Of a stretch of 64,000 nt of DNA, positions 26,659-47,701 are shown piece by piece. Position numbers and translations under genes: made by a program. Source of the stretch: a candidate division FCPU426 bacterium (GTDB lineage Bacteria > Oederibacteriota > Muellerivitia > Muellerivitales > Muellerivitaceae); assembly GCA_963847625.1 (NCBI GenBank), contig CAWKAR010000050.1, positions 1 to 64,000 on the forward strand, read 5' to 3'. The notes beneath the pieces were generated by a model. The model did no database searches and was not told the origin of the DNA. It saw nothing but the letters and a program-made list of their open reading frames with translations. Numbering within the stretch: the stretch's first letter is position 1; each line of letters starts with the position of its first letter.

Positions 26659-26714
26659 CTTTTCTCCTCTTGCTGAAAAAATCCGGCTGCGTTGGACTTT
26701 TCGCAGGTCGTGTC

Positions 26715-27188: not shown

Positions 27189-27237
27189 CGATCCCTCGTT
27201 GAGTCGGATTGGTTCAAAGCGGTTTGTAACTTCAATC

Positions 27238-27720
27238 CTACTGCGGCGCCGCGTTCACCGGAGTGAAACGGTCCAGGACCTTCTTACGCTCTTCCTCGTT
27301 GATCACTCGATCCAGGTCAGGCATCAGCAATTGTTCCCGCAGGTGGTGCTGATGCAAAAGGTCTTTCAAACGCAACTCTTCCTCCAAGAGCGCGAGGGCT
27401 TCCAGGCCGGGTTCTTTAGTTAATGTCCAACGGTTATAAAAGGATTGGATAATCCCCAGGGCGGCCCGAATTTTCGTATGCTCGTTGGCCAGAGTTTGGA
27501 CCGTTCCGATCTGGTCTACATCGCCGTGCACTTCTAAAAGGGGAAAAAGATGGGATTCCTCCTCCGACATATGGAGGCGAACGGCTTTTTCAAACCGCTC
27601 CAAATAAGAGGAAGCCTGGAGGGGATCGTGCCTCAGGATGAAGAGTTGGTGCTGCCGGATAAGCCATTCCAATTGGGAGTGGACCCATTCGATCTTTTGA
27701 AAGCTGCTGGTTATTTCCAT
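27238..27720 (-). CDS. Hemerythrin-like (HHE) protein, tandem paralog
   Basis: H...HMSEEE...EH...HHLRE. Confidence 0.85.
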   Translation of the reverse strand: MEITSSFQKIEWVHSQLEWLIRQHQLFILRHDPLQASSYLERFEKAVRLHMSEEESHLFPLLEVHGDVDQIGTVQTLANEHTKIRAALGIIQSFYNRWTLTKEPGLEALALLEEELRLKDLLHQHHLREQLLMPDLDRVINEEERKKVLDRFTPVNAAPQ

Positions 27721-28586: not shown

Positions 28587-28602
28587 TATGACTAAAATCA
28601 TG
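28587..28602. promoter_or_regulatory. TATGAC-N4-GTCATA-type site (TATGAC TAAA ATCATG)
   Basis: Between the divergent Crp gene and the RIC-like gene; TAATAT starts 21 nt downstream (28624). Confidence 0.7.
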
Positions 28603-28660
28603 GGTGCCCAGCGGCGGAATACCTAATATAAAACAAATAAAGTTTCAGCAAGGGGCGAAC

Positions 28661-29200
28661 TTGAAAGATGAAACGGCGCGGTGGATGAATAAGCCCATCC
28701 CTGAGATCATCGACTTCATCCTCAAAAAACACCATGCTTATACCCGGGAGCAGATGGAACGCCTCCTGAACCTTTCCAAAAAAACAGTCCGGACCCACGG
28801 AACGAAACATCCGGAATTGCTGCAACTGAACGTGATCCTCATGGAAATGAACGAGGAGTTGGAAGGCCATATGACCCGGGAGGAGAAGGAAGTGTTTCCC
28901 CACTTGAGGAAATTAACGGAAGGAAGTAGAAAGGCGAAAAAAAACACCGATTCAACCCTTGACAAGAAAAATAGGGACCGTTTGATCCACTTGCAAATGT
29001 GGGAACACGGCATGACAGGCGAGGAATGGTTAGAAATCCACCGGTTGACGAGAGATTACACCACCCCTCCTGATGCCGGCTCATCCTATAAATCGCTTTA
29101 CCGGGGGCTGAGGGAAATGGAGGCGGACATGCATCGGCACATCCACCTGGAAAATAATGTGCTTTTCCACCGGATCGTCGAGATAGGGTTTTTGAAATAA
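28661..29200 (+). CDS. RIC/YtfE/ScdA-like di-iron protein lacking the N-terminal ScdA_N domain
   Basis: KHHAYTR, HGTKHPEL, HMTREEKEVFP, EH, HIHLENNVLF; TTG 28661 after AAGGGG. Confidence 0.85.
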   Translation: MKDETARWMNKPIPEIIDFILKKHHAYTREQMERLLNLSKKTVRTHGTKHPELLQLNVILMEMNEELEGHMTREEKEVFPHLRKLTEGSRKAKKNTDSTLDKKNRDRLIHLQMWEHGMTGEEWLEIHRLTRDYTTPPDAGSSYKSLYRGLREMEADMHRHIHLENNVLFHRIVEIGFLK

Positions 29201-29249
29201 ATTTGGATAATCACATAACCTCATGAGGTTTTTACCGGCGGGTTTAAGA

Positions 29250-29403
29250 CCCCGGCTTTAGCCGGGGGCATGCCAACTATTTATAAAGAATAAAAAGAGG
29301 TTGGTGTAGTACCGATCTCAATATGTATTTATGGAAGATCGGCACAAGCCGTGTAATTGGCCGGGGTCCATGCCCCGGCCAAGTGGCGACCCAAAGGGTC
29401 GTC
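29250..29403. repeat. Cluster of GC-rich palindromes (REP/MITE-like or structured leader)
   Basis: CCCCGGC-TTTA-GCCGGGG (29250-29267), TTGGCCGGGG-TCCATG-CCCCGGCCAA (29357-29382), GGCGACCC-AAA-GGGTCGTC (29385-29403), ccgatct/agatcgg. Confidence 0.6.
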
Positions 29404-29452
29404 CCTTGACAAAAACGGGGAAGGGAAACGGCAATAAAGCAGGTGATTGACG

Positions 29453-30295
29453 ATGAGCTCTAAAATCCATTTGGACCTGAGGGGACTGCCTCCCCGGGAG
29501 CGCCACCAACGCATCCTCCAAACATTCGAAAGCCTGGGGGTGGGCGAGGCGTTTGAAATAGTGAACGACCATGACCCCCACACCCTGCACCACCAGCTTC
29601 AACACGAGAAACCCCGGCAATTCCGGTGGGAATGCGGCGAAAGGGGTCCAGAAATCTGGAAGATCACCGTCGTGAGGGTTCCGGAAGGAATGGGGGAGGT
29701 CGAGGACAGCGATTACGTCCCCCAGCCCCAGCCCAAACCCATGTCCAAACCCGATTGGGTCAAGAACCTCAATCCCTCCTGCGACCTGTTCCTCGACGTT
29801 CGGCCCATGGTTGAAAACGGGTTGGAACCCTTCCAAGTCATCTTGAAAACCCTCAAGGAATTGAAGCCAGGACAGCACTTTCAACTGGTGGACTCGGTGG
29901 AGCCAACCGCCCTTTATCCCGTCCTGGCAAGGATGGGTTTCATCCATTACACGGAGTTTCGGGACGGGGCTTGGAACTGCTATTTCAAGAAAGCTTCCGA
30001 GACGGACGGGGCGGCCTCGGGCAACCCCGAATCCGCCGAGCCTGGAAGCCTATTCGACCGGATGATGACCGTCGGCCCCAGGGTGGAGCTGGATGTCCGG
30101 AATCTTCCCGCACCAGAGCCTCTCATGAAGATCCTGGAAAACCTTCCCGCGGTCGCCGAAGGGGGGGTGCTTTTAGTGCGCCACCAGAAGGAGTCCAAGC
30201 AACTCATGGACAAACTCCGGGAGAGGGGATTCGATACGGCCAGCCGAAAAATGGGGGAGACGCACTACCAAATCCTGGTTTGGAAAAAAAGTTAA
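29453..30295 (+). CDS. Triple DUF2249 (TusA/SirA-like) domain protein
   Basis: Three units: LDLRGLPPRERH...VNDHDP; LDVRPMVENGLEPF; LDVRNLPAPEPL. Confidence 0.85.
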   Translation: MSSKIHLDLRGLPPRERHQRILQTFESLGVGEAFEIVNDHDPHTLHHQLQHEKPRQFRWECGERGPEIWKITVVRVPEGMGEVEDSDYVPQPQPKPMSKPDWVKNLNPSCDLFLDVRPMVENGLEPFQVILKTLKELKPGQHFQLVDSVEPTALYPVLARMGFIHYTEFRDGAWNCYFKKASETDGAASGNPESAEPGSLFDRMMTVGPRVELDVRNLPAPEPLMKILENLPAVAEGGVLLVRHQKESKQLMDKLRERGFDTASRKMGETHYQILVWKKS

Positions 30296-30431
30296 ACCGT
30301 TTTACGTCCCAACCCGCAAGGGATCGGAATCCGGTATGGAAATACGTTCTTAACGCGCACTTTAGGGACTTGAAAAACCCAAGCCCTTGTCCATTTCAAT
30401 CCAAGTCAAAGTCACCTTATTTTTCCATATT

Positions 30432-30447
30432 TATGACTATAGTCATG
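30432..30447. promoter_or_regulatory. TATGAC-N4-GTCATA-type site (TATGAC TATA GTCATG)
   Basis: CATAAT starts 21 nt downstream (30469), upstream of the PRTase-like gene. Confidence 0.8.
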
Positions 30448-30503
30448 CAGGCCCAAGATGCGTCATCCCATAATGAAATCGGCATTCAAAGGGGAGACGA
30501 GCC

Positions 30504-31232
30504 ATGAAAAGGGATTCCATGATCACGCGAGCCAAGAAAAAATACGTTTTCCGGGACAGGGAGGAATCGGCCCGGGTTCTCTGCGAGAAACTTTTCCATT
30601 ACCGGGGTTTGAATCCCCTGGTTCTGGCATTGAACCCCGACGCCTTGCGTATGGGGAGATTGGTGGCTCACTATTTAAGAGGGGATCTGGACATGATACT
30701 GGTCCAGCCGGTTTTCTCGCACGAAAATCCTTTGGCCCAAGCGGGAGCTGTCAGCGAAAAGGGTGCCTTTTACCTGAATAAAGGACCGGTTGGATCCAAG
30801 ACGACGGGGTTTTCTTGCGAGGAGGAGGCCCAACAAGGCCTTCGAAACCTGGAACAAAGGCGCAAACTTTTCACCCCTGGCCGGCCTTCGGAGAGCGCCC
30901 ATTATCGGGTGGTGGTTGTGGTAAGTGACGGAATGGCAGCTCCCGGCGTCCTGATGGCGGCTATCCGGCAAGTTGATACCGAGCACCCGGCCAAAATCGT
31001 GGCGGCGACCGCAGCGGCCACGCCGGAAACTCTGGACAGCCTCCGCCAGGAAGCCGAGGAGGCCATTGTGCTGGTGGTGAAACCCGAGGCGGAATCGCTG
31101 CGAGACCTTTATGAGAAGCTTCCCCCCGTCGAGGATGAGGAAGTCATCCATATTCTCAACGATCCCCGGCCCATCCTGGCACCGGGCCGGATCGTCCGCG
31201 CAGACTCAATGGATTTAAACCCGGAAGATTAG
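30504..31232 (+). CDS. Phosphoribosyltransferase-like protein with degenerate PRPP loop
   Basis: FRDREESARVL N-terminus, NPLAQAGAVSE, VVVVSDGMAAPG. Confidence 0.8.
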   Translation: MKRDSMITRAKKKYVFRDREESARVLCEKLFHYRGLNPLVLALNPDALRMGRLVAHYLRGDLDMILVQPVFSHENPLAQAGAVSEKGAFYLNKGPVGSKTTGFSCEEEAQQGLRNLEQRRKLFTPGRPSESAHYRVVVVVSDGMAAPGVLMAAIRQVDTEHPAKIVAATAAATPETLDSLRQEAEEAIVLVVKPEAESLRDLYEKLPPVEDEEVIHILNDPRPILAPGRIVRADSMDLNPED

Positions 31233-31293
31233 AAGCACCCGTCTCAAACCTCCAAAAAACCTATTATGGGATTCCTATGTTCAGAATCTTGGT

Positions 31294-31866
31294 TTAGGCC
31301 CCGAACCTGGTTCCGGCTTCGGCCCAGTCGATGGCCTTCAGGAAGGCCTGTACGTAATCGGGCTTGGCCAGTCCATAATCCACCATATAAGCATGCTCGA
31401 ACACGTCCCCCAGAAGAACCGGGACGGAGCCAGCCGGATATCCTGTGTCATGTTCGTTGATCCAAACATTGAACAGTTTTTTCCCGACCGGGTCGTAAGT
31501 CAGAGCCGCCCAGCCGATGCCCCTCATGCCGCACACAGCCGTGAAGGTTTTTTTCCAATTCTCCACCGAGTCGAAATCAGTCTTGATTTGGTCAGCCAGT
31601 TTTCCCGAGGGTTCAGGTTGCTTCGGGGCCTTGGTCATGTTCGCGAAGTAAAGCTCATGTAGCCTCATTCCGTTGAACTCCCACCCGAACCTGCGCTTCA
31701 GCTCTGCGAAACCCGGGGTGCCGGCTTCGGCCTTTTCCAGAAGCTCCACCACCTTGTTCACGTTGGTCACATATCCCTCGTAAAGTTTGAAATGGTTCTT
31801 CAGCAAGGTTTCGCTGAAGCCTGGCGTTCCGATCAGGCTTGAAAAATCCTTTGGTTGGTAAGGCAT
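31294..31866 (-). CDS. Fe/Mn superoxide dismutase (ChrC-like subgroup)
   Basis: NHFKLYEGYV, LHELYF, GIGW, DVFEHAY. Confidence 0.92.
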   Translation of the reverse strand: MPYQPKDFSSLIGTPGFSETLLKNHFKLYEGYVTNVNKVVELLEKAEAGTPGFAELKRRFGWEFNGMRLHELYFANMTKAPKQPEPSGKLADQIKTDFDSVENWKKTFTAVCGMRGIGWAALTYDPVGKKLFNVWINEHDTGYPAGSVPVLLGDVFEHAYMVDYGLAKPDYVQAFLKAIDWAEAGTRFGA

Positions 31867-32104
31867 GTTTCCCCTCCTTGGTTATATTTGATACAACTGA
31901 TAAAGCCTTTTTCATAAAAAAGAAAGGGGTCTGAAGTAAAAAGTTTGAATTTTCCTTGAATTGGGGTATTACCGATTAACCTTTTTATATAGGGTGTTTA
32001 AAACAAGTCCCTTTCAAGGCTACTAAACGGTTGATTCCGGGCCAAAAGATGGATACCGTGACATTCCCCGGGTTGGACGGGGATATCCCAGCTTCGAGGA
32101 GCCT

Positions 32105-32851
32105 ATGACCTCGACTTTCCTATATATAGTCCTCAGCGTCACGATCGTGAGCCTTATTTCGCTTATCGGTATATCCCTTTTCTCACTCAGCCATAACGCG
32201 TTTCACCAGATCGTCTCTTTCCTGGTGGCGTTGGCGATAGGGGCGCTTTTCGGCGATAGTTTCCTCCATCTCCTGCCGGAAGCTTATGCCCGGCCAGCCG
32301 CCGGATTGAATACGCCCCTTTACGCCATCGGCGGAATTCTGCTTTTCTTCATCCTGGAGAATTTCCTGCAATGGCGGCACCAACACTCGGATGAGCACCA
32401 GGAAATCCACCCGGTCGGCTACTTGAACCTCATGGCGGACATGGCCCACAACTACATCGACGGGCTCATCATCGGTGCTTCCTACCTGGCGGGTTTCAAG
32501 TTGGGATTGGCTACCTCTTTAGCGGTCATGCTTCATGAAATCCCACATGAGTTCAGCAATTTCGGAATCCTGGTGATGTCCGGCTTCACAAGGGGAAAAG
32601 CACTTTTCCTGAATTTCCTGACGGCCTTGACGGCGGTAGTGGGGGGGCTTACGGCCTGGTGGGTCGGATCGAACGTGGATGGCTTCATGCAAGCCTTGAT
32701 CCCCATTACCGCTGGAAGCTTTATTTATATTGCGGGTTCCGACCTGGTACCCCAGCTCCATAAAAACGTGAAATCCCTCAGGGCGTTTTTACAGATCTTG
32801 GCCATCCTCGCGGGAGTAGGGATCATGTATTTGTTGAAGGTGTACGAGTAA
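32105..32851 (+). CDS. ZIP-family metal transporter
   Basis: HLLPE, His-rich loop, HNYIDG, HEIPHE. Confidence 0.93.
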   Translation: MTSTFLYIVLSVTIVSLISLIGISLFSLSHNAFHQIVSFLVALAIGALFGDSFLHLLPEAYARPAAGLNTPLYAIGGILLFFILENFLQWRHQHSDEHQEIHPVGYLNLMADMAHNYIDGLIIGASYLAGFKLGLATSLAVMLHEIPHEFSNFGILVMSGFTRGKALFLNFLTALTAVVGGLTAWWVGSNVDGFMQALIPITAGSFIYIAGSDLVPQLHKNVKSLRAFLQILAILAGVGIMYLLKVYE

Positions 32852-32893
32852 AAAAAACTGGCCTCACTGTCGGCCGGTTATCGCAATGAGGCC
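32850..32893 (-). terminator. Probable terminator for the convergent minus-strand transcript
   Basis: ggcctcactg...caatgaggcc hairpin preceded by an A-run on the + strand. Confidence 0.55.
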
Positions 32894-33021
32894 GTCGCCG
32901 ATTCCTTCCAAAGCCGGGTCAACGCATCCCACAGGTTTTTCCGTGTGGCCAAGTGATAGCTGAGTGGAAAATTTTTGTCCCCTAGGCTAGAAAGAAAAGG
33001 AGGGTTCGGGAAATCCTGGGA

Positions 33022-33537
33022 TTAACTTTCAGTCTCACTGGAAAGGTTGGGGGTGTCCTTGATGGAGAAGGTCAAAAGGCGGCAAAGCTGGGCTTTTTCC
33101 TTTTCTTCCACCAGCCGGTCCACCTCGGGATACAAAATCCGGTTTTCCCTTACCGAATGCTGTTCCAGGTATTTCTTGAACTGGGCTTCGTCATCGAATA
33201 GGGCGATGATTTCCTTCCAATTGGAATCGCTGCGGCTCAAACGGGAAGCCCGCAGGACCAAACGGTTGAACCACTCCGTGATTTTCTGGTGTTCCGAGGA
33301 AAAAACCTCGGTTTCACCGCCATGGATTTGGGCGGCCCTCTGCTGGTAGAGGGGCAGCAGGATCTCGTCCTCCTCCTTCATATGATTGAAAAGGGCTTTA
33401 CCTAATGTTTTCAACATAGCCCTGGCTTGGGTGTAATCGCCTTTGAGAATGGCGACTTGGTGGTTTTCGAACAAATCATGTATTTCCTGGTGGATCTGGT
33501 TCAATTCCAAAAGAGTGCGGGACTGGGATTCCGTCAT
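33022..33537 (-). CDS. Hemerythrin-like (HHE) protein, third paralog
   Basis: H...HMKEED...EH...HSVRE. Confidence 0.85.
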   Translation of the reverse strand: MTESQSRTLLELNQIHQEIHDLFENHQVAILKGDYTQARAMLKTLGKALFNHMKEEDEILLPLYQQRAAQIHGGETEVFSSEHQKITEWFNRLVLRASRLSRSDSNWKEIIALFDDEAQFKKYLEQHSVRENRILYPEVDRLVEEKEKAQLCRLLTFSIKDTPNLSSETES

Positions 33538-33627
33538 TTTTTTCCGTTCCTTGGGAATATAAGTGATTCTTGAGAATGGAGCCTTTATGAATTACTTGAA
33601 TTTTAAATTTAATGGAAGTTTTTAATG

Positions 33628-33643
33628 TATGACTAGTCTCATA
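33628..33643. promoter_or_regulatory. TATGAC-N4-GTCATA-type site (TATGAC TAGT CTCATA)
   Basis: Minus-strand TAAAAT starts 22 nt away (33605), upstream of the hemerythrin gene. Confidence 0.75.
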
Positions 33644-34037
33644 ATGGTTATCGTCGCAAGAAATGTTTTCCGTGTTGAGGGGCACGGCCGGGTTTCATAT
33701 TCCATGCCGATCTTCCATAAAGCTTACGAGGAGGCCGGTATTGCACCGATTTTTATGACAGCCTTATAGAAAATCGGCGCATGTTTATGATGGAAGCGGG
33801 GAAAATGAAATGGGGGGTTCAGCCGCCACTGATTCCCCATGAATCTGTGCCGATCTTTCATAAAAAACATTTTGAGATCGGTGCTATACCAGCCACTTTA
33901 ACCGTTTTATGGAGGGCTGGCATGCGCCGGCAGTCTTCTCCCTCGGGCCGAATTTTATATCTATTAATTCAGCACACTCACATCTTGGGTTTCGGCTTGT
34001 AGCCTCAACCCAGAGGCCGGAAGTCTCGAGCGGCCTG

Positions 34038-34511
34038 CTAAACGATCCCCGAGGTGATATTGGTTTGGAGGAATTTGAAAACCAAATCGGATAATTTTTC
34101 ACAATTTTGGCCATAGGCATAAAGCTGGCAGCGCCCGCCCCTGGAGGGATTGAATTCCACCACCAGCGTCGCCGGGGGACCGGGGGGGGGCTGGATGGAA
34201 AATTTCGAAAGTTCGCAGTTTTCCAGGATCAAACGGACATTGCGCAAGCCTTCCAAATGGTGGAGCTCAAAATCGTTGTGAACCAGAAACTGCCGGGCTT
34301 CCAGGCAGTATTTTTTCGAAAAAAACCAAAGGCTGTCCCACTCCGTAATTTTTTGGTTTTCCTCGTTGGATTGGGAAATGAAGACGTCCTCGATGGGTTC
34401 GGGGATCAAACGGGCGGCGAATTCAAGGATATCCTTGAGCTTTTTCAGGCAGGACTCCGAAGTCAGGCCCATTTTTTGAAAATACACATTGAAAGATTTG
34501 TTCATGACCAC
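34038..34511 (-). CDS. Hypothetical protein
   Basis: 157-aa ORF with GGAGA RBS; no recognised motif. Confidence 0.7.
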   Translation of the reverse strand: MVMNKSFNVYFQKMGLTSESCLKKLKDILEFAARLIPEPIEDVFISQSNEENQKITEWDSLWFFSKKYCLEARQFLVHNDFELHHLEGLRNVRLILENCELSKFSIQPPPGPPATLVVEFNPSRGGRCQLYAYGQNCEKLSDLVFKFLQTNITSGIV

Positions 34512-34567
34512 TCTCCAAATTTCTTCCTCGATTAGAAGTTTTTATAGGGGATGGGAATTGAAAGGGG

Positions 34568-34583
34568 TATGACCACGGTCATA
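34568..34583. promoter_or_regulatory. Perfect TATGAC-CACG-GTCATA site
   Basis: Minus-strand TATAAA starts 21 nt away (34546). Confidence 0.8.
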
Positions 34584-34607
34584 CCCTGCCGGCGCCGGAC
34601 CGCAAGG

Positions 34608-34829
34608 TCAATTTTTGGGTTTGCCCCTGGGTGCCGGGATAGGCTTTGCCGACCCCGTCGCCGGATGAGAGTCGGGGGTTGAAACATCGCTTTGGCGCTT
34701 CAACCAATCACGGTACCCAGAGTGAAGCGCGGGAAGCTGGCTTGGCTTTTTCCCTGAAAAATTCTGGGCCACGGCTTTCCATTTTCGGTGTTGTTCCTCG
34801 AAAAATTTTTTCAGGATTTTAGAATCCAT
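34608..34829 (-). CDS. Small basic hypothetical protein
   Basis: ORF open from GTG 34838; has its own palindrome and -10 pair upstream. Confidence 0.55.
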   Translation of the reverse strand: MDSKILKKFFEEQHRKWKAVAQNFSGKKPSQLPALHSGYRDWLKRQSDVSTPDSHPATGSAKPIPAPRGKPKN

Positions 34830-34894
34830 CAGGAACACCTTTAGCTAAACTGCGGAACCCATAAAGTAAAGTACTTGGCAGGGGAGAGCTGAAT

Positions 34895-34910
34895 TATGAC
34901 GTAAGTCATA
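34895..34910. promoter_or_regulatory. Perfect TATGAC-GTAA-GTCATA site
   Basis: Between the small ORF and acs; minus-strand TACTTT starts 21 nt away (34873). Confidence 0.8.
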
Positions 34911-35083
34911 GGGGGAGCCTAAAAAGAGGGGAGAATGACCTTCCCTTGATTAGATTCCAGGGATGCTGCGAGTGAAAGAAGTTAAAAAAAGTCAATCTTT
35001 GCGGGCATATTTTGCCAGGTTGGTTAAACTTTAAAAAACAAGCTACTAAGCTTTGATAACTTAAATTTTTTTAGGGAGGAAAG

Positions 35084-37063
35084 ATGACACCGCCAGAACA
35101 ATCCATCACAAGTTTTCAAAAGGATTCCCAAACCTTCCCGCCGCCGAAGGACGTAGCTGCAAAAGCCTATATCGGTTCTTTTCAAAAATACCAGGAGATG
35201 TACAACCGTTCGATCAAGGATTCCAAGGCATTTTGGCTGGAACAGGCCGCTTCCGAACTTCAATGGTTCAAGAAACCGACGAAAGCCATGGAGTACACTT
35301 GGGACACGGCCAAAAGGGTTATCAAACACACCTGGTTTGAGGACGGTGAGCTGAACATTTCGGTGAATTGCCTGGACCGCCACCTCGCCAAGCTCGGGAA
35401 CAAAGTCGCGATCCTTTGGCAGGGTGAAAAGGACGAGGAAGTCCGCAAGATCACCTATACGGAATTGCACAAAATGGTCTGCCAGTTCGCCAACGTGCTT
35501 CTCTCGAAGGGAATCAAAAAAGGGGACCGCATCTGCGTTTATATGCCCATGATCCCGGAGGCGGCCGTCGCCCTGTTGGCCTGCGCCAGGGTGGGGGTCA
35601 TCCACTCGTTTGTTTTCGGGGGGTTCAGCGCGGAATCCTTGAAAACCCGCATCCAGGACTCCGAGAACGTCATGGTGATCACCACGGACGTGAGCTACCG
35701 GTCGGGGAAAACCATCGGCTTAAAAACCATCGTAGACGAAGCCCTGAAGGAATGCCCCTCGATTAAGAGCGTGATCGTATACAAAAGGGGGGAAGGCAAA
35801 GTCAACATGCAATCCGGGCGGGATTCCTGGTGGCACGACGACATCAAGAACACCAGCCCCATGCACGAAGCTAAGCCCATGAAGGCCGAAGATCCCCTCT
35901 TCATCCTTTACACGTCGGGTTCCACGGGAAAGCCCAAGGGCGTCCTGCACACGACGGCGGGATATCTCCTGCACGCGGCCATCTCCTTCAAGTACATCTT
36001 CGATTACCATCCGGAGGATATTTTTTGGTGCACCGCCGACATCGGCTGGGTAACGGGCCATAGTTACATCGTTTACGGGCCCCTGGCCGTCGGCGCCACC
36101 ACCGTAATGTTCGAGAGCGTCCCCACCTATCCGGACGCGGGAAGGTTCTGGCAGGTCGTGGCCAAACACAAGGTGACCATCTTCTACACCGCCCCCACGG
36201 CCATCCGGTCCCTCATGCGCGAAGGCGAACAGTGGCCGAACAAACACGACCTCAGTTCCCTGCGGATACTGGGTTCGGTGGGGGAGCCCATCAATCCCGA
36301 GGCGTGGCTGTGGTACCACCGCAATATCGGGAAGGGCCGCTGTCCCATCGTGGATACCTGGTGGCAGACCGAGACGGGCGGCATCCTGATCACCCCCCTG
36401 CCGGGCGCCCATACGCTCAAGCCCGGAAGTGCCTCCCGGCCCTTCTTCGGGGTAGAACCGGTTGTGATGGACAACAACAATAAGGAATGCGCCGTGAACG
36501 AAGGCGGCAAGCTCTGCATCAAGAAGCCCTGGCCCGGCATGGCCCGGACCATGTGGGGGGACCACAACCGCTTCATCGACACCTACTTTACGGCTTTCGC
36601 CGACCTTTATTACACCGGCGACGGCTGCCGGGTCGACACGGACGGGGACTATTGGCTCCTGGGCCGCGTGGACGACGTGGTGAACATCTCGGGGCACCGC
36701 ATCGGAACCGCCGAGGTGGAAAGCGCGTTGGTCTCCCATCCCAAGGTTTCGGAGGCCGCGGTGGTGGGCTATCCCCACGACATCAAAGGCTCGGCGCTTT
36801 ATGCTTACGTGACCCTCAAGGAGGGCGTGACACCCTCCGAGGAACTGAAGAAGGAACTGGTCCAGCACGTTCGCAAGGAAATCGGGCCGATCGCCCAGCC
36901 GGACAAGATCCAATTCGCCGAAGGGATGCCCAAGACCCGGAGCGGCAAAATCATGCGCAGGATTCTCAGGAAAATCGCCGAGAACGACACGAGCAACCTG
37001 GGGGATACCTCGACGCTGGCCGATCCAAGCGTCGTGGACAAGCTGGTGAAAGGGAAGCTGTAA
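35084..37063 (+). CDS. acs: Acetyl-CoA synthetase (AMP-forming)
   Basis: [32 protein letters not shown]. Confidence 0.97.
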
Positions 37064-37102
37064 TCAGCCGGTAAGCCGGGTTTGCTTCCTTATATAAGTT
37101 AT

Positions 37103-37141
37103 AAAAAAGCGCACTTTAGATTTCCTAAAGCGCGCTTTTTT
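37103..37141. terminator. Bidirectional intrinsic terminator
   Basis: aaaaaagcgcactttag-atttc-ctaaagcgcgcttttt between convergent genes. Confidence 0.8.
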
Positions 37142-37180
37142 ATTTACGGCTTAAAGAGTCAACAACTAAGGACTAAATGG

Positions 37181-38779
37181 TTAGAACCGATACCAAGCTG
37201 AAACCTGGAAGCGATGTCCCAACCAAACCTGTTCCGGGGCGGTGGCTGTCTTGAGATAGTTCGTGGCGATCCGGGCATATTCCACGGCCAGCCGGATGTT
37301 GCTGGTGAAGTCATGCATGATATTAGCGAACATGACCTGGTCGTCATTGTAAGACCCGGCGCTCATGCCGGCCCCGCCGGCCTTCGCGGGATTCCAGGCG
37401 GACAAACCCCCGATATTGGGGGAGAAAATTTCCCCGTAACCCGCCGTCAAGAAGGTTCCCCAGCTCTTGGGACCGTGGATCTGGACCTGGCCGTTCCAGC
37501 TTTGCACTTTGATCAGGGTGAAATTGTTGCTCGGATCGAACCCGGCGATACCCGCGTCCAAGTTGGGGGAAAGGGTGTTGTTGCCGACGGTTACGGCTGC
37601 GTTATTAGCGTTGGCTAATGCCGGCAAACCACCCGTCCAGTACGGAAACATGTCCCCGTCCCCTGTTCCCGTGGTCCACTCACCTGTCGCCACCACAGCG
37701 GGACCATCCTTGCCGTCAAAGGGAAGAAGCGGGATCAAGGCGTCAATCGCCAGGCTTTGCGCCCAAGTGTAGTTGTTTAAATCGTAGTTGCCCGGATTGT
37801 TCCAGGCGGTGGGCCAGGCATAGTTCCGGTCGGTCCCGGAAACACCGATGCTGAAAGGAACGGTGTTGACGGGGCCGGTGGCCATCCCAAAACGCCCCTT
37901 CCACCCGCCGATGATGAATTTCAACGCGCCATCCGCGTTGGGGAATTGCGAATCGCGCTGCTCGGGACGGTCGGCGGAAACGGCGAGTTGCACCCTCACA
38001 TCCTCTCCGAGTCCCAGGGTGTCGGATACTCGGATCTGGGGGGTCCGCTCGTAAAGCACGCCCATGTAGGGGGCCACGGAAACGGAGGCCAGGATGTAGT
38101 CCATGTTCCACCCGAAGAGGGACCAGTATTGGCCGGCCATGATATTCAAGCCGTTCTTTTCAGCCGAGACGTAGGCGTGGCGGAGGCCCAGGGTGGGATA
38201 GGTGTACCAACTACTCTCTGAATTAGGAGAAGCAGAGTTACTGGGGGCAGACAAGTAGGTGGGGCTCGGGTCATACCCCTTGAAATCGACTTCCACGTAA
38301 CCCTTGGTCTTCCAGCCGTCGATAGCCGGAACCGTGCCCAGGAAGGAAAGGCGTGAGTCCCGCATGGAAGCCAGAGTTTCACCGTTATTTCCGTTATAGG
38401 ATCCCACTCCCGGAGACGGAAGTCCCGACCTTAGGACCGGACCGTCACCCACCACCTCGGCGAAGGAATGGGTATCATCCTGGATCGCGTCCAGTTCGGC
38501 GAAACCATGGACCTCGACCTTAATCGCGTTTTCCAGGCCTGAAACCCGCTTGGATAAAGAATCAAGGGTTGGAGTCTCCGCGGCAGGAACGGCCGTGGAA
38601 ACGGCGGTTGGCGCTGTTGCCGGTACCGCCTTATGAGATACTGTTGCCGGAGCGACAGTTGTAGCTTTTGTCGCGGCTGAAGCGGGAGCGGCATTGTCCG
38701 CCAGTGCCGGGGAGGCTGACAGGGTCAGGGAAACCCAACCAGCCGCAATCCAAAACATTAAAAACAAAATCCGTTTCAT
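37181..38779 (-). CDS. Outer-membrane porin (DcaP-like)
   Basis: Signal peptide, Ala/Thr/Pro linker, short coiled coil, SRL..., LRHAYV, AGQYWSLF, RTPQIR, C-terminal WYRF. Confidence 0.78.
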   Translation of the reverse strand: MKRILFLMFWIAAGWVSLTLSASPALADNAAPASAATKATTVAPATVSHKAVPATAPTAVSTAVPAAETPTLDSLSKRVSGLENAIKVEVHGFAELDAIQDDTHSFAEVVGDGPVLRSGLPSPGVGSYNGNNGETLASMRDSRLSFLGTVPAIDGWKTKGYVEVDFKGYDPSPTYLSAPSNSASPNSESSWYTYPTLGLRHAYVSAEKNGLNIMAGQYWSLFGWNMDYILASVSVAPYMGVLYERTPQIRVSDTLGLGEDVRVQLAVSADRPEQRDSQFPNADGALKFIIGGWKGRFGMATGPVNTVPFSIGVSGTDRNYAWPTAWNNPGNYDLNNYTWAQSLAIDALIPLLPFDGKDGPAVVATGEWTTGTGDGDMFPYWTGGLPALANANNAAVTVGNNTLSPNLDAGIAGFDPSNNFTLIKVQSWNGQVQIHGPKSWGTFLTAGYGEIFSPNIGGLSAWNPAKAGGAGMSAGSYNDDQVMFANIMHDFTSNIRLAVEYARIATNYLKTATAPEQVWLGHRFQVSAWYRF

Positions 38780-38937
38780 GTTGTCTCCTTGAAAATTATT
38801 GCGCCTCTACCATTCGCCGGAAAAATCCAAGAAATTTTTCTGAAAACTTGGCCCGGATCCTATTTTAAGGCGTCCGTCATTTTTATAAAAACAGATGACG
38901 AATATAAACATTACATTCTCATCAACGCGTCCTACTG

Positions 38938-38953
38938 TATGACTTGGGTCATA
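38938..38953. promoter_or_regulatory. Perfect TATGAC-TTGG-GTCATA site
   Basis: Between the divergent porin and acetate operon; TGcTATAGT extended -10 at 38990-38998. Confidence 0.8.
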
Positions 38954-39101
38954 GATAATGAATGAACTTTGGCCTCAAAAATCATTCCATGCTATAGTTA
39001 ACCGGTATTCCCACCCGAAAAATTTATTCGAGAAATAAATCGGATAAGACTTTATTGAATAACCCGGGGGGAATTTTTTTTTGTGAGGACCTAAATTCAT
39101 C

Positions 39102-40997
39102 ATGGAAACCGAACACCAAAGCCTATTCGAAAAGCTGAAGACGGAGTACCCCTCCAAGTTCGTCACGGAAGAAAACATCTTCAAGCATATCCATCCCGGT
39201 GACCGGATTTTCATCGCCACCGGTTGCGGCGAGCCACAGTACCTGGTCGGAGCCCTGATCCAGTTCGTCGAAAACCATCCCAAGGCCTTTTTCGACGCGG
39301 AAGTCATACACGTCTGGACCCTGGGGCTGGCCCCCTATACCGACAAGAAATTCAAGCAGAATTTCCGGCACAATTCCTTCTTCATCGCCGACAACACCCG
39401 GGAATCGGTCAACCAGGGCCTGGCGGATTACACCCCGATCTTCCTTTCCCAGGTCCCCGACCTGCTCAAACGAAAAGTAGTGCCGGTGGACGTGGCCTTG
39501 ATCCAGACCAGCCTACCGGATGCCCATGGGTACATGAGCCTGGGTTTGAGCGTCGACATCACCAAGGCGGCCACGGAAAACGCGCGCCTGGTCATCGCCC
39601 AAACCAACATCGAAATGCCCCGGGTCCACGGGGACACCTTCATCCACATCAACGACGTGGATTTCATCGTGCGGCATGACGAGCCCCTTCTGGAGTACGA
39701 ACCCCAGGTTTCCGACGAGATCGCCCAGCGCATCGGGAAGTACGTGGCGCGTTTCATCGAGGATGGGGACACCATCCAGGTAGGTTACGGCAGCCTGCCC
39801 AACGCCATTCTGGCCAACCTACGCGGCAAGAAGCACCTGGGCGTGCATACCGAACTGCTGACGGACGGCATCGTGGAGCTCATGAAGGAAGGGGTCATCG
39901 ACAACACTCTTAAAAACCTCAACCCGGGAAAGGCCATCGCCAGCTTTTGCATGGGCCGGAAGCCCACCTACGAGTATATCCACGACAACCCGGGCATCGA
40001 GTTCAGGCCCATCGACTACACCAACAACCCGCTCATCATCGCGAGCATCAAGAACATGACCGCCATTAACACCGGCTTGGCCGTGGATTTGACCGGCCAA
40101 TCCACCGCCGAGTCCCTGGACCGGGTGTTTTTCAGCGGCGTGGGGGGCCAGTCGGATTTCATGCGCGGCGCCGTGCTATCCCCGGGCGGGAAGACCATCC
40201 TGGCCATCCAATCCACCGCCGACAACGAGAATATCTCCCGAATCGTCCCATTCCTCCACGAGGGCGCCGGGATCACCCTCACGCGGGGCGACATCCAATA
40301 CCTGGTCACCGAGTACGGCATCGCCTACCTGCACGGCAAGAACGTGCGGGAGCGCGCCATGGACATCATCTCCATCGCCCATCCCAAGTTCAGGCCCTGG
40401 CTGATCGAGGAAGCCAAGAAAAACAACCTGATTTACCGGGACCAGGCCTTCATTCCCGGCCGCCGGGGGGAATACCCGGAGGACCTCGAAACCCACCGCA
40501 CCACCGAGTCGGGCCTTCGCCTCCTCATGAGGCCCGTGAAAATCAACGACGAACCGCTTCTGAAGGATTTCTTTTACTCCCTTTCCGACCAGAGCACCTA
40601 CCGCCGGTTCATGTCGGTGCGCCGGGATATGCCGCATGAAAGGCTCCAGGAATTCGTGGTCATCGACTACAGCAAGGAAATGGTGATCCTGGCGGTCCGG
40701 GAGGACCCGGAGCGGGAGGAAATCGTCGGGGTCGGGCAGTACGGTATCCAGGAAGACCGTCATGCGGCCGAAGTGGCCTTCGTGGTCAAGGACAGCTACC
40801 AGAACCAGGGTGTGGGGACCGAACTGCTGGCGTACCTGACGGTGCTGGCCAAAAAGCAGGGGCTTTTCGGCTTTACCGCCGAGGTCCTGCCGGACAACGC
40901 CACCATGCTCCACCTTTTCGAGAGCCAGGGGTTCGACGTGGAGAAACGCACCAGTTCCGACGTGGTGGATCTCAAGATGGCCTTCAAGGCTGTTTAA
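39102..40997 (+). CDS. Acetyl-CoA hydrolase/CoA-transferase fused to a Pat-type GNAT acetyltransferase
   Basis: GCGEP, HLGVHTELLTDG, SGVGGQSDFMRGA, VTEYGIAYL; then RPVKINDEPLL...RRF...IDYSKE...AEVAFVV..YQNQGVGTELL. Confidence 0.92.
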   Translation: METEHQSLFEKLKTEYPSKFVTEENIFKHIHPGDRIFIATGCGEPQYLVGALIQFVENHPKAFFDAEVIHVWTLGLAPYTDKKFKQNFRHNSFFIADNTRESVNQGLADYTPIFLSQVPDLLKRKVVPVDVALIQTSLPDAHGYMSLGLSVDITKAATENARLVIAQTNIEMPRVHGDTFIHINDVDFIVRHDEPLLEYEPQVSDEIAQRIGKYVARFIEDGDTIQVGYGSLPNAILANLRGKKHLGVHTELLTDGIVELMKEGVIDNTLKNLNPGKAIASFCMGRKPTYEYIHDNPGIEFRPIDYTNNPLIIASIKNMTAINTGLAVDLTGQSTAESLDRVFFSGVGGQSDFMRGAVLSPGGKTILAIQSTADNENISRIVPFLHEGAGITLTRGDIQYLVTEYGIAYLHGKNVRERAMDIISIAHPKFRPWLIEEAKKNNLIYRDQAFIPGRRGEYPEDLETHRTTESGLRLLMRPVKINDEPLLKDFFYSLSDQSTYRRFMSVRRDMPHERLQEFVVIDYSKEMVILAVREDPEREEIVGVGQYGIQEDRHAAEVAFVVKDSYQNQGVGTELLAYLTVLAKKQGLFGFTAEVLPDNATMLHLFESQGFDVEKRTSSDVVDLKMAFKAV

Positions 40998-40998
40998 G

Positions 40999-43119
40999 AT
41001 GACCATAAAAACGCCGGATATTAAGAGCCTCTTCGAGCCCAAGAGCGTGGCGATCGTGGGGGCTTCCGCCCTCCCGGACAAGATCGGCTACAAGATCGTG
41101 GACAACATCCTCGCGGGCGGTTACAAGGGCCGGGTTTATCCCGTGAACCCCAAGGGCGGGGAGGTACTGGGCCTTCCAATGAAGTCCAGCCTCGCGGAAA
41201 TTCCGGAACCCGTGGACTTGGTCACCATCGTGATTCCGGCCAAACTGGTCATGGACTCCGTCAAGGATTGCGCGAAGTACGGCGCGAAGTTCCTCTCCAT
41301 CATCACCTCCGGTTTTTCCGAGGTGGGCAACGTGGAGGAGGAAAAGGCCATCGCCTCCTACGCCCGCGACAACGGGATGCGCGTGCTGGGGCCCAACATC
41401 TTCGGTATTTACTCGGCCAACGCCTCCATGAACGCCATGTTCGGGCCCCGGGTCCAAAGCGGGAACGTGGCCATCATCACACAAAGCGGCGCCCTGGGCA
41501 TCGCCATGATCGGCAAGACCGCGGTGGACCACATCGGACTTTCCGCCATGGTTTCGGTGGGAAACAAGGCCGACCTCACCGAGTCGGACCTGTTGGACTA
41601 CCTCGCGCAGGACCCCCGCACCAAGGTCATTATGTTGTATATCGAGGGTATCCGTGACGGGGAGAAGATGGTATCCGCGCTCGCGCGGACGGTCCGGAAA
41701 AAACCCGTGGTCCTGATCAAGTCCGGGCGTTCCAAGCGCGGCGCTATGGCGGCTGCCTCCCACACCGGGGCTCTCGCCGGGTCCGACGAGATCCTCAACG
41801 ACATCGTCAAACAATGCGGCGTGCTGAGGGCCGAGAACATCCAGGACGCCTTCAATTGGTGCAAATTTTTCACCTGCAGCGCCGCGCCCCGGGGAGAGAA
41901 CACTGTCATCATCACCAACGGCGGGGGAATCGGCGTGATCACGACGGACGCCTGCGAGAAATACCAGGTGCAGCTTTACGACGATGCGCAGGTCATGAAG
42001 AATATCTTTGCCAAGGCGGTTCCGGATTTCGGTTCCCTCAAGAACCCCATCGATCTCACAGGCCAGGCCCGGTCCGAGGATTACAACGCGGCCATGGACG
42101 CGGCCCTGAAGAATGAGAATATCCACTCCATCATCAGTCTTTACTGCGAAACCGCGGTCTTTGACGTGAACAACCTGGCTACCATGATCCGCGAGAACAC
42201 CATCCGTTACCAAAAAAGGGGAAAGCCCATTCTATTCTCCATCTTCGGGGGAGAGGCCACCGAGAACTGCATCCTGTCGCTTCGCAAGGACAACGCGCCG
42301 GTTTTCCCGGACGTATACGAAGCTGTTTCCTGCCTGGGGTCCCTGATGGCCCAGTACCGCCACACGCTGACCCCTCCGACCGTTCCCGAGGAAGCCGCCG
42401 TCCCCGCGAGGGAAGTGGACGCCATCCTGGACAAGGCCCGGCAGGATGGGCGTTATTTCCTCCTGGCCCAGGAAGGCCAGCGCCTCATGGAACTATGCGG
42501 CATCGCCACCCCCCAGAGTGCCATCGCGCGCAGCCTGGAGGAGGCCGTCAAGGCCGCGGAAAAGATCGGCTATCCTGTGGTCATGAAAGTGGTGTCCCGT
42601 GACATCCTGCACAAGAGCGACGTGGGCGGGGTGGCCCTGAACCTGGAAAACCCCAAGGAAGTCATGGACGCCTACGAGGCAATCCTGCACAACTGCCGGA
42701 ACCATAACCCGCGTGCGGTCATCGAGGGCATGGAAGTGTCTGAAATGGTGAAGCGCGGCATCGAGACCATCGTGGGCGCCCGGCGGGACGCTTCCTTCGG
42801 GCCCATCGCCATGTGCGGCATGGGCGGCATTTACGTGGAGGTCATGAAGGACGTGGCCTTCCGGGCGGTTCCTTTTTCCCGGCAGGAGGTCCTGTCCATG
42901 ATCAAGGAAACCAGGATCTATCCCCTGCTGTTGGGGGTCCGGGGGGATGAGAAGAAGGACATCGAGCGGGTGATCGACTCGATCATCATGTTGGGCTCTC
43001 TGGTGCGGCAGTGCCCGGGGATATCGGACATTGAGGTGAATCCCCTGGTGGTGTACGATCAGGGGAGCGGGATCAAAGCTGTGGATGTGCGGGTACTTTT
43101 ATCGGAGAGGCGTTTGTAA
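40999..43119 (+). CDS. Acetate--CoA ligase (ADP-forming), fused alpha/beta
   Basis: AIVGAS, VYPVNPK, GPN, AASHTGALAG, HKSDVGGV, IEVNPL. Confidence 0.92.
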   Translation: MTIKTPDIKSLFEPKSVAIVGASALPDKIGYKIVDNILAGGYKGRVYPVNPKGGEVLGLPMKSSLAEIPEPVDLVTIVIPAKLVMDSVKDCAKYGAKFLSIITSGFSEVGNVEEEKAIASYARDNGMRVLGPNIFGIYSANASMNAMFGPRVQSGNVAIITQSGALGIAMIGKTAVDHIGLSAMVSVGNKADLTESDLLDYLAQDPRTKVIMLYIEGIRDGEKMVSALARTVRKKPVVLIKSGRSKRGAMAAASHTGALAGSDEILNDIVKQCGVLRAENIQDAFNWCKFFTCSAAPRGENTVIITNGGGIGVITTDACEKYQVQLYDDAQVMKNIFAKAVPDFGSLKNPIDLTGQARSEDYNAAMDAALKNENIHSIISLYCETAVFDVNNLATMIRENTIRYQKRGKPILFSIFGGEATENCILSLRKDNAPVFPDVYEAVSCLGSLMAQYRHTLTPPTVPEEAAVPAREVDAILDKARQDGRYFLLAQEGQRLMELCGIATPQSAIARSLEEAVKAAEKIGYPVVMKVVSRDILHKSDVGGVALNLENPKEVMDAYEAILHNCRNHNPRAVIEGMEVSEMVKRGIETIVGARRDASFGPIAMCGMGGIYVEVMKDVAFRAVPFSRQEVLSMIKETRIYPLLLGVRGDEKKDIERVIDSIIMLGSLVRQCPGISDIEVNPLVVYDQGSGIKAVDVRVLLSERRL

Positions 43120-43120
43120 A

Positions 43121-44155
43121 ATGAAAACAATCGTCATTGGATCCAGCGAAAAAAGCGCCGGTAAAACCGGTGTAATCTTGGGTTTGCGAAGCGCCCTGGG
43201 AAAGGGGGCGGGGTACATGAAGCCCCTTGGCGACCGGCTGATCTACCGCAAGAAGCAATTGTGGGACTACGATTCGGCCCTCGTTACCAACCTGTGGGAC
43301 CTCAAAGAGAACCCCGAGGACATCTCCATCGGGTTCGAGCACGCCAAGCTCAAGTACAAGTACGACGCTGAAACCACCGTTGAGAAGGTGCACGAGGTGG
43401 CCTCCCGGGCGGGTTCGGGGAAGGACATCCTGTTCGTGGAGGGCGGGAACCAGTTAGGGTACGGTTTGTCGGTCCACTTGGACGCGGTTTCCGTAGCCAA
43501 GGCCCTGAAAGGGGACCTGGTGATCGTGGTCAGCGGCTCCGAAAGCTCCATCGCGGATGACATCTATTCCATCAAAAGAAACCTGGACCTCCAGGGGGTC
43601 AACTTCAAGGGCGTCATCCTCAACAAGATCCACGATCCCCAGGATTTTAAGCAGACCCACCTGCCCGGCCTCGAGAAACTGGGCATCCCGGTGCTGGGCC
43701 TCCTGCCATACAAGAAGGAACTCACTCACTTCACCATGGGCTACCTGGCGGACATCCTGTTCTCCAAGATCCTGGCGGGCGAGGAAGGCCTGGCCAACCC
43801 GGTGGAGCATATCGTGATCGGGGCCATGTCGGTGGGAAGCGCCCTGCGCGAGACTTCCTTTATGAAGGATCATAAGCTGGTCATCACCGCGGGGGACCGG
43901 ACGGATATGATCCAGGCGGCCCTGGAGAGCAATACCTCGGGCATCATCGTGACCAACAACATCCTGCCGCCCCTGAGCGTCATTTCCCGGGCAAACGAGC
44001 TAAAAATCCCACTGCTCCTGGTTTCAACCGACACTTTCTTGACGGCCAAGCACGTGGACACCATGGAACCACTCCTCACCAAGAAGGACCAGGAAAAGGT
44101 CGCCCTGTTGACTCAAATGGTCAAAGACCATGTGGATTTGAAAAAATTAGGGTAA
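43121..44155 (+). CDS. Stand-alone Pta N-terminal (BioD-like + DRTGG) protein
   Basis: SAGKT, YMKPLG, FVEGG, ILNK, ITAGDRTD; no PTA_PTB catalytic domain. Confidence 0.88.
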   Translation: MKTIVIGSSEKSAGKTGVILGLRSALGKGAGYMKPLGDRLIYRKKQLWDYDSALVTNLWDLKENPEDISIGFEHAKLKYKYDAETTVEKVHEVASRAGSGKDILFVEGGNQLGYGLSVHLDAVSVAKALKGDLVIVVSGSESSIADDIYSIKRNLDLQGVNFKGVILNKIHDPQDFKQTHLPGLEKLGIPVLGLLPYKKELTHFTMGYLADILFSKILAGEEGLANPVEHIVIGAMSVGSALRETSFMKDHKLVITAGDRTDMIQAALESNTSGIIVTNNILPPLSVISRANELKIPLLLVSTDTFLTAKHVDTMEPLLTKKDQEKVALLTQMVKDHVDLKKLG

Positions 44156-44311
44156 AGTTTCAAATCCGATAAACTGTTCCTTAGGCTTAGACTGGTGCGA
44201 ATGGGTGTTTCTCCCATAAATCCGGGAAACACCCATCAAATTGAAAATATCTCCTCGAATATCCCCCCTAAAACCCAAGATATTTTTTTGATTTCATTTG
44301 GGTTGTTTTTT

Positions 44312-44377
44312 TGTGGATAAATCATCTGAATTAAATCAAGAACCCTCAAAAATCGGTGTATTTGGGCCTGTGGATAA
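44312..44377 (-). promoter_or_regulatory. Two perfect DnaA boxes (TTATCCACA)
   Basis: TGTGGATAA at 44312-44320 and 44369-44377. Confidence 0.5.
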
Positions 44378-44409
44378 CTTTTTTACTTTATTCCGCCCCT
44401 GGATTTTTT

Positions 44410-44425
44410 TATGACTTCGGTCATA
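44410..44425. promoter_or_regulatory. Perfect TATGAC-TTCG-GTCATA site upstream of the Crp/Fnr gene
   Basis: Palindrome extended by ttt/aaa flanks. Confidence 0.78.
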
Positions 44426-47671: not shown

Positions 47672-47701
47672 GTTTGGGCCTTATCGAAACGGTAACTAAA
47701 T

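Follow-up and report, generated by a model that had tools for sequence, protein, structure and literature searches.

Predicted regulon of a Crp/Fnr-type box, TATGAC-N4-GTCATA, at class II promoter spacing in a candidate division FCPU426 bacterium

We analyzed a 64,000-nucleotide stretch of DNA, hereafter the window, from a candidate division FCPU426 bacterium (GenBank assembly GCA_963847625.1, contig CAWKAR010000050.1, positions 1 to 64,000), in which copies of the palindrome TATGAC-N4-GTCATA are interspersed with genes for hemerythrins, an RIC-like protein, acetyl-CoA and acyl-CoA enzymes, and two Crp/Fnr regulators that we call A and B (Table 1). Seven matches with at most two mismatches occur in the window, compared to a mean of 0.75 and a maximum of 3 in shuffled sequences, none of 100 of which reached seven. 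An earlier note on this DNA, made from the letters alone, had listed these seven sites, and all were recovered at their positions and mismatch levels. None lies inside an open reading frame (ORF) of at least 100 aa, in agreement with the intergenic placement claimed there; the sites at 33628 and 38938 are in or at the edge of called ORFs of 46-58 aa that look spurious. The whole 4.43-Mb assembly holds five perfect, four one-mismatch and 68 two-mismatch sites, and the 16-kb stretch 28587..44425 contains four of the five perfect and two of the four one-mismatch sites. The only two Crp-type helix-turn-helix matches above the Pfam cut-off in this genome are regulators A and B. Regulator B matches PF00027 (70 bits) and PF13545 (50 bits) above their cut-offs, which places it in the Crp/Fnr superfamily, and its structural model (mean pLDDT 79.5) has the CRP fold, with a template modeling (TM) score of 0.82 to GlxR and mycobacterial CRP.

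Table 1. Boxes, predicted promoter elements and genes of the window. Relatives are labelled G001 and so on, with this genome as G000; Atlas likenesses are leads.
Feature	Position	Strand	Remarks
Box, two mismatches	28587..28602	+	Class II toward RIC-like gene; either regulator may read it
Predicted -10 hexamer TAATAT	28624..28629	+	21 nt past the 28587 box; predicted start near 28636
Box, one mismatch	30432..30447	+	CATAAT at 30469-30474 (21 nt); toward phosphoribosyltransferase-like gene
Box, one mismatch	33628..33643	-	TAAAAT at 33600-33605 (22 nt); toward hemerythrin gene; same box in G001
Box, perfect	34568..34583	-	TATAAA at 34541-34546 (21 nt); toward 155-aa ORF
Box, perfect, identical in G001	34895..34910	-	TACTTT at 34868-34873 (21 nt); toward 73-aa ORF
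Box, perfect	38938..38953	+	Between porin-like gene and CoA-transferase cassette
Box, perfect	44410..44425	+	141 bp upstream of regulator B gene; likely autoregulatory (predicted)
Crp/Fnr regulator B, 232 aa	44559..45257	+	Helix GTTVETCIR; invariant C85, C96, C97, C106; probably reads TATGAC-N4-GTCATA
Crp/Fnr regulator A, 229 aa	27824..28513	-	Helix SVREVVSR; probably reads GTGAC-N4-GTCAC ahead of qNor and RIC genes
RIC/YtfE-like di-iron protein, N-terminally short	28661..29200	+	149 bits vs cut-off 204.7
DUF2249/TusA-domain protein	29447..30295	+	Downstream of RIC-like gene
Phosphoribosyltransferase-like protein	30504..31232	+	No Pfam match; groups with PF00156 proteins, which are targets of the box in relatives
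Hemerythrin/HHE-domain protein	33022..33537	-	Faced by the 33628 box
155-aa unknown protein	34038..34505	-	Kept with box in G001; weakly resembles hypothetical/DUF3908 clusters of the Atlas
73-aa unknown ORF	34608..34829	-	Frame kept in G001
acs, AMP-forming acetyl-CoA synthetase	35084..37063	+	No fitting hexamer from the 34895 box
Porin/DcaP-like outer-membrane protein	37181..38779	-	Atlas lead only
Cassette	39102..44155	+	CoA-transferase-GNAT fusion 39102-40997; ADP-forming acyl-CoA ligase 40999-43119; DRTGG/Pta-N protein 43121-44155
Two hemerythrins and TIGR04053 AhbD-like radical SAM gene	25558..27720	-	Downstream of regulator A

A 16-bp box that ends 21 nt before a -10 hexamer is centered at -41.5, the class II position of Crp/Fnr activators. 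At four of the seven window sites (28587 and 30432 on the forward strand, 34568 and 34895 on the reverse) a -10-like hexamer begins 21 nt past the box, and at 33628, on the reverse strand, it begins after 22 nt, the spacing that the earlier note had described. CATAAT follows the 30432 site at 21 nt likewise in G001 and G005. At the site at 38938, which the note had put near -60, an extended -10 element, TGC-TATAGT (38990-38998), lies 39 nt past the box, as it also does in G001; this centers the box at about -59.5, a class I-like position, and a weak TGTAAT stands at 22 nt on the opposite strand. The predicted class II targets in the window are the RIC-like, phosphoribosyltransferase-like, hemerythrin, 155-aa and 73-aa genes, and the CoA-transferase cassette has the class I-like site at 38938. 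From these spacings, transcription would start near 28636, 30481, 33593, 34534, 34861 and 39005. Control of the acetate operon, also proposed at the outset, is not supported for acs: the 21-nt hexamer of the 34895 box faces the conserved 73-aa ORF, not acs.

The box and its spacing are conserved in relatives. Exact copies were found in 19 of 24 family relatives, and the reversed control gave none in all 24. We fetched 40 regions around exact sites in 13 relatives and six further loci (782 kb in total; numbered with L) and called genes with a simple model of our own. In these loci, ORFs of at least 100 aa span 82% of the sequence yet contain only 2 of the 111 sites that have no more than one mismatch; TGA and TCA are invariant in all 111, and the distances from box center to start codon peak at 60-80 bp. 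The pattern TAnnnT occurs exactly 21 nt past the box in 40 of 84 site-gene pairs with a start codon 45-110 bp away. Without this genome and its congener, the count is 39 of 77 pairs from 14 genomes or loci, compared to about 1% at other offsets. The side of the box that does not face a gene is not a clean control, as an offset-21 peak appears there too (14 of 76), probably from genes missed by the ORF caller or from long leaders; other offsets and reversed patterns were used instead. Searching unselected whole genomes for the composite of box, 21 nt and TAnnnT yielded 308 matches in 31 family genomes and none in the control. Spacers vary, while the box arms and the distance from box to -10 element are kept. 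This fixed distance effectively refutes the explanation that the palindromes are chance occurrences or nonregulatory repeats, to which the shuffle, intergenic and composite controls are also opposed and which we give almost no credence; that the palindrome is real and constitutes a regulon box seems to us nearly certain. In these predicted promoters it has class II Crp/Fnr activator spacing, and the earlier description of the box as Crp/Fnr-type, with class II geometry and matching neither CRP nor FNR, is borne out. Matches in three other genomes were set aside as chance: the 22 sites with at most one mismatch in G098 (control, 7) include no perfect copy, many mismatches in the TGA core and one composite match, and seven of the eight composite matches in G087 and G088, whose Crp proteins carry R-E helices, lie inside ORFs.

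The earlier note had left the binder open, and comparative data point to the gene at 44559-45257, which would make regulator B the protein that reads the box. Regulator B was found in 27 of 31 family genomes, and in these the median number of sites with one mismatch or none is 16. The four family genomes in which it was not found hold 0, 2, 3 and 5 such sites; three of these are only 63-84% complete, and G017, at 97% completeness, has no site. The box stands upstream of the regulator gene in 14 of the 14 closest orthologues, this one counted, and class II geometry toward the regulator's own gene is seen in 11 of 18 genomes, this genome not among them. Across the phylum, at least three composite matches occur in 36 of 43 genomes with a homologue bearing a V/I-E-T/S helix compared to 6 of 56 without (the G067 helix is unread, and G069 was placed in the latter group uninspected); two of those six appear chance-like, and the other four are incomplete assemblies that yielded no orthologue. 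The pairing of helix and box also appears in two distant families whose homologues share about 30% identity and have the helix T-[TS]-I-E-T-[AT]-I-R; there the box lies behind the regulator gene and before nfuA, and TAnnnT stands at 21 nt in all 10 loci. Because helix and box co-occur in relatives in this way, we favor regulator B, and predict that it very probably binds TATGAC-N4-GTCATA and acts as a class II activator. The pairing thus extends past the family, though among the distant metagenomic homologues it is seen in a minority.

Two other candidate binders were considered. A co-located two-component regulator, either an NtrC-type sigma-54 activator or the partner of a sensor kinase, was suggested by an NtrC-type gene in the fetched clusters of nine genomes or loci and a sensor kinase in 14. 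The NtrC-type protein has no orthologue at E <= 1e-100 in G000, G001, G016 and G005, all rich in sites, and was rejected on that ground. A fixed 21-nt link to a sigma-70 -10 element is also at odds with enhancer-type sigma-54 activation, and we consider a two-component binder highly improbable. Regulator A adjoins the 28587 site and has a CRP-like helix of the kind that reads TGA...TCA, so it could in principle bind all seven sites. It was not found in G003, G004, G007, G020, G023 or G076, family genomes that hold 8-31 TATGAC sites each, and it tracks a different box. We reject it as sole binder and think it very unlikely to bind all seven.

That second box is GTGAC-N4-GTCAC. It lies upstream of the RIC genes that adjoin regulator A orthologues, with a -10 hexamer again at 21 nt, and most relatives carrying regulator A have it in the RIC promoter. 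Among relatives, the exact pattern GTGACYTWAGTCAC is present in 9 of the 17 that carry regulator A and in none of the 13 others, an outcome favored by the derivation of the pattern from sites beside regulator A; six of its 11 exact sites point toward RIC genes and two toward qNor. In this genome GTGAC-N4-GTCAC precedes qNor (C21:66186, where C numbers denote contigs of this genome) and a YceI-like gene (C39:31222). The boxes before qNor and RIC likely mark a predicted nitric oxide (NO) defense regulon of regulator A, which would read this near-identical sequence through Arg180. In two studies, Arg180 is paired with G at the variable half-site position (PMC1274295; PMC2677863), a rule that regulator A, with its R-E helix and G-containing box, fits. 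The earlier idea of a single regulator that includes its own gene therefore stands in part: the predicted regulon takes in the gene at 44559, but there are two regulators, one with a box of its own. The 28587 site has A in both halves, here and in G001; the RIC gene of G003, a genome that yielded no regulator A, is preceded by a perfect TATGAC box; and the YceI-like gene has a G box here and an A box in relatives. A change of one base per half-site thus seems able to carry a promoter from one regulon into the other. Since most relatives with regulator A have GTGAC-N4-GTCAC at the RIC promoter, the ambiguous 28587 site may be shared between two overlapping regulons or rewired.

FNR has Val at position 180, and the recognition helix of regulator B likewise has Val-Glu at 180-181. 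It keeps Glu181 and Arg185, which would read the invariant TGA...TCA, with Val at 180 and Cys/Ser/Ala-Ile where FNR has Ser; this combination would fit A at the variable position rather than G, as for CRP, or T, as for FNR and HcpR. Among 121 sequences (regulator B and the best 120 of 221 matches, 56-96% identity) E195 and R199 are invariant. The half-sites agree, with A in 238 of 248 and T in none, in a set of training sites chosen by likeness to the consensus. The nearest published motif found is that of HcpR, predicted in Geobacter, Desulfuromonas and Desulfotalea and printed as wyTTGACnnnnGTCAArw (PMC1274295; PMC545781), which differs from TATGAC-N4-GTCATA at one symmetric position. Both proteins belong to the Crp/Fnr family and share an identical inner TGAC-N4-GTCA, a residue other than Arg at 180, and some redox or nitrosative targets. 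They differ in that the box of regulator B has A preceded by T (TATGAC, compared to yTTGAC), and in that regulator B has Val/Ile rather than Ser/Pro at 180, four pocket cysteines, and a broad predicted regulon with no hcp among its annotated targets. Regulator B thus has neither the TTGAC-N4-GTCAA or TGTGA box nor the Ser, Pro or Arg at 180 that would assign it to HcpR1.

Comparison to other subgroups gives a similar picture. FNR, FixK and DNR are described as sharing the box TTGAT-N4-ATCAA (PMC2908626), and FNR-type and CRP-type helices as having ExSR and RExxR, respectively (PMC3590769). With FNR, FnrL, FixK and DNR regulator B shares Val-Glu at 180-181, class II geometry, a predicted low-oxygen target set (oxidases, a heme enzyme and stress proteins), likely autoregulation, and paralogues with one common box. 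It differs from them in having E-T-C-I-R instead of ExSR, A for T at the variable position, and no N-terminal FNR cysteine cluster: FNR has three cysteines near its N-terminus and a fourth, central one, and in regulator B no Cys precedes residue 85. It scores 44-45 bits against cut-offs of 228-300 for FNR and FnrL, and 45 bits against 300 for FixK, whose box lacks the A. The Escherichia coli CRP box is given as TGTGA-N6-TCACA in PMC2677863. Regulator B resembles CRP in fold, in the TGA-N6-TCA core, in Glu181 and Arg185, and in class II and class I-like positions. It lacks Arg180, has the helix V-E-T-C-I-R, carries Thr95 and Tyr104 where CRP binds cAMP through Glu and Arg, and scores 57 bits against a cut-off of 266; the R-E-x-x-x-R helix in the window belongs to regulator A. 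It is far below every NCBIfam equivalog cut-off. Regulator B is thus predicted to work like FNR and FixK while falling outside CRP, FNR, FixK and HcpR1. A precedent for A at the variable position is the box of Bacteroides BT4338 (Cur), wwwTATGTTnTAnAACATAwww (PMC6989115), whose half-site also starts with TATG. The likeness to BT4338, presumably a Crp-like regulator, is one of boxes; its inner bases are TT/AA rather than AC/GT, and its regulon concerns carbohydrate starvation. TATGAC-N4-GTCATA was not found described in the literature searched, the scope of which was search listings and, for some papers, passages of text, outside figures, supplements, the motif tables of PMC2677863, subscription papers, RegPrecise and CollecTF, and a literature search with recognition-helix strings gave nothing relevant. 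Many Crp/Fnr subgroups are uncharacterized, according to PMC9603854.

Targets outside the window indicate what the regulon may do. A weight matrix was trained on 124 sites from relatives only, chosen by likeness to the consensus. Its scan of this genome gave 11 matches of at least 16 bits, 10 of them intergenic, and none in the reversed genome. The regulon is predicted to reach two hydrogenase operons and NikR: a perfect box (C19:73414) precedes an operon for a soluble sulfhydrogenase-type [NiFe] hydrogenase, and others precede an operon for a membrane-bound Ech-like hydrogenase with hypAB (C57:65024), a DUF3683 FAD/Fe-S oxidoreductase (C28:112037), and NikR with a TonB/ABC uptake system (C52:34084). 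Weaker matches lie before a GH57 branching-enzyme operon and an H+-pyrophosphatase. Representatives of 63 of the 69 target clusters in relatives were annotated. They include proteins of respiration and heme metabolism (cytochrome bd subunit I, cytochromes c, a Rieske protein, oxidase subunit III and an AhbD-like radical SAM protein), metabolic enzymes (zinc alcohol dehydrogenases, PEP synthase, phosphoketolase, phosphoribosyltransferases, cyclopropane synthase and a desaturase), and others such as RIC, hemerythrins, P-type ATPases, an AAA_33 protein, Hsp20 and a sensor kinase, the last being the commonest target cluster in the family (11 members). The TIGR04053 AhbD-like radical SAM gene has a box directly before it in eight other loci. 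This target set resembles the hypoxia gene sets of FixK, FnrL and DosR, and on its strength we regard low oxygen as the probable signal.

The protein itself offers a hint of how a signal might be received. C85, C96, C97 and C106 are invariant in the same 121 sequences; aligned to Thermus CRP, they stand in or beside the phosphate-binding cassette, as that cassette is described in PMC12937710, at positions that line the pocket. Thr95 and Tyr104 occupy the places of the Glu and Arg that bind cAMP in Thermus CRP. These cysteines may hold a cofactor. We favor, with moderate confidence, the reading that the conserved box at -41.5 is the operator of regulator B, activating at low oxygen. The intergenic box, its fixed spacing and its conservation across the family are observed, and they point strongly to a regulator B dimer as the protein that would bind it. 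In the class II paradigm the dimer on its box reaches into the -35 region and brings sigma-70 RNA polymerase to the promoter, and regulator B would do the same. To judge from the targets, the output would be a low-oxygen program of hydrogenases, nickel uptake, acetate/CoA enzymes and hemerythrins here, and of high-affinity oxidases, alcohol dehydrogenases, phosphoketolase and Hsp20 in relatives. In the weakest step, the four cysteines might carry an O2-labile metal or Fe-S center or serve as a thiol switch. More speculative, and in our view doubtful, is the proposal that with regulator B a new class of direct O2 sensors comes into view, with Fe-S or metal on four cysteines in the former cAMP pocket, that it is the master aerobic/anaerobic switch of this uncultured family, and that the helix T-[VI]-E-T-x-I-R defines a widespread, undescribed specificity class for TATGA-N6-TCATA.

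Regulator B might instead read the same box in response to NO or nitrosative stress, as HcpR or DNR would. RIC, hemerythrins and the AhbD-like heme enzyme are among the targets, the nearest printed motif belongs to HcpR (PMC1274295), distant homologues adjoin nitrate-reductase-like operons and DUF1858 genes, and some homologues have source names that read 'nitrogen oxide reductase regulator'. However, qNor and RIC, which are classic NO targets, are for the most part preceded by regulator A's GTGAC box, and hydrogenases, NikR, alcohol dehydrogenases, phosphoketolase and cytochrome bd better match anoxia. No hcp, which with frdX is a core target of HcpR1, was found among the 63 annotated target representatives, the set to which the hcp search was confined, whole genomes not being searched. 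We consider an NO signal improbable. Somewhat less probable still is that regulator B senses a metabolite, sulfide or a metal (for example Fe-S status, persulfide or copper), or that it is ligand-free and controlled by its expression, like FixK. Paralogues without the cysteines retain the helix, nfuA is a target in distant families, the sensor kinase forms the commonest target cluster, and a copper ATPase and chaperone are encoded directly downstream in the window. Against this, the invariance of the four cysteines argues for a cofactor or redox role in the regulator B branch, and the sensor kinase is missing from the matching position here, its best matches elsewhere in this genome reaching 30-32% identity. 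Copper sensing was rejected, as no box lies upstream of the copper ATPase and chaperone genes.

Several observations weigh against regulator B as a low-oxygen activator at this box. No -10-like hexamer follows the 44410 site at 21 nt toward the regulator B gene in this genome, and the center of the 38938 site, about -59.5, departs from the usual -61.5. The nine orthologues that follow the closest 14 (55-62% identity) have no box within 450 bp upstream. Three composite matches each were found in G014, G015, G074 and G048, 63-85% complete, in which no orthologue was detected, and G025 has two orthologues with only two sites at no more than one mismatch (control, 3). Among distant metagenomic homologues (L197-L237; 31-40% identity, TTVET[CS]IR-type helix) 6 of 41 have a box with at most two mismatches nearby, four of the six with the 21-nt hexamer. 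Family paralogues (40-55% identity) have mostly lost the Cys-Cys pair while keeping the helix, and the distant families lack the cysteine quartet while sharing helix and box; the signal may therefore differ between branches. The targets include O2-using enzymes (oxidase subunits, desaturase and an AurF-like protein). Finally, the genomes of the family and phylum are kin, so that their counts are not independent, and the fetched loci were picked around known sites, with those of G003, G024 and some other genomes left out.

Val/Ile-Glu-Thr-x-Ile-Arg with A at the variable position would be a new entry in the Crp/Fnr recognition code. Such helices are common among the 50%-identity representatives matched, so that regulons could be predicted for many uncharacterized regulators. 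Two regulators in one window with boxes one base per half-site apart would provide a natural test of this code and of promoter movement. The box also maps what is likely the low-oxygen program of an uncultured lineage, and if the pocket cysteines bind a cluster, they would represent an O2-sensing architecture distinct from that of FNR.

Further observations concern the regulators and their neighbors. In L027, L030, L032 and L115 (also L159 and L163) the codon that aligns with Met14 of regulator B is exactly 41.5 bp from the box center upstream of it, and the -10 is at 21 nt, which suggests leaderless, autoactivated transcripts in these relatives. G002, G003, G013, G019 and G076 have up to six regulator B paralogues each, and the number of matches rises with the number of boxes (rho 0.80, among kin that are not independent). 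In L139-L149 and L153, from the two distant families, regulator gene, box and nfuA are often followed by a small cysteine-rich ORF without a Pfam match, and in L197-L199 the distant homologue lies within a cluster for a molybdopterin oxidoreductase (nitrate-reductase-like) and molybdenum cofactor, with boxes directly behind. The best plasmid match, an Azospirillum protein (33% identity), was discarded: its helix is TTLHTVSR, which we take to be NnrR-like, and no box lies nearby. The RIC-like protein of the window lacks the N-terminal ScdA domain present in the RIC proteins of relatives, and the first membrane subunit of the Ech-like hydrogenase seems to be split into two ORFs (C57:65110-66630; L238:1111-2630). 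Genes for the copper-type P1B ATPase and HMA chaperone (45455-47914) converge on the regulator B gene. G001 has a 459-aa membrane sensor kinase (L072:17862-19241) between the hemerythrin and 155-aa genes, absent from the matching position 33650-34030 here. It also has an island (L072:11357-17027, compared to 31866-32105 in the window) with a desaturase, cytochrome c oxidase subunits and a YwiC-like gene; oxidase subunit I has no match in this genome, and cytochrome bd is present on C23.

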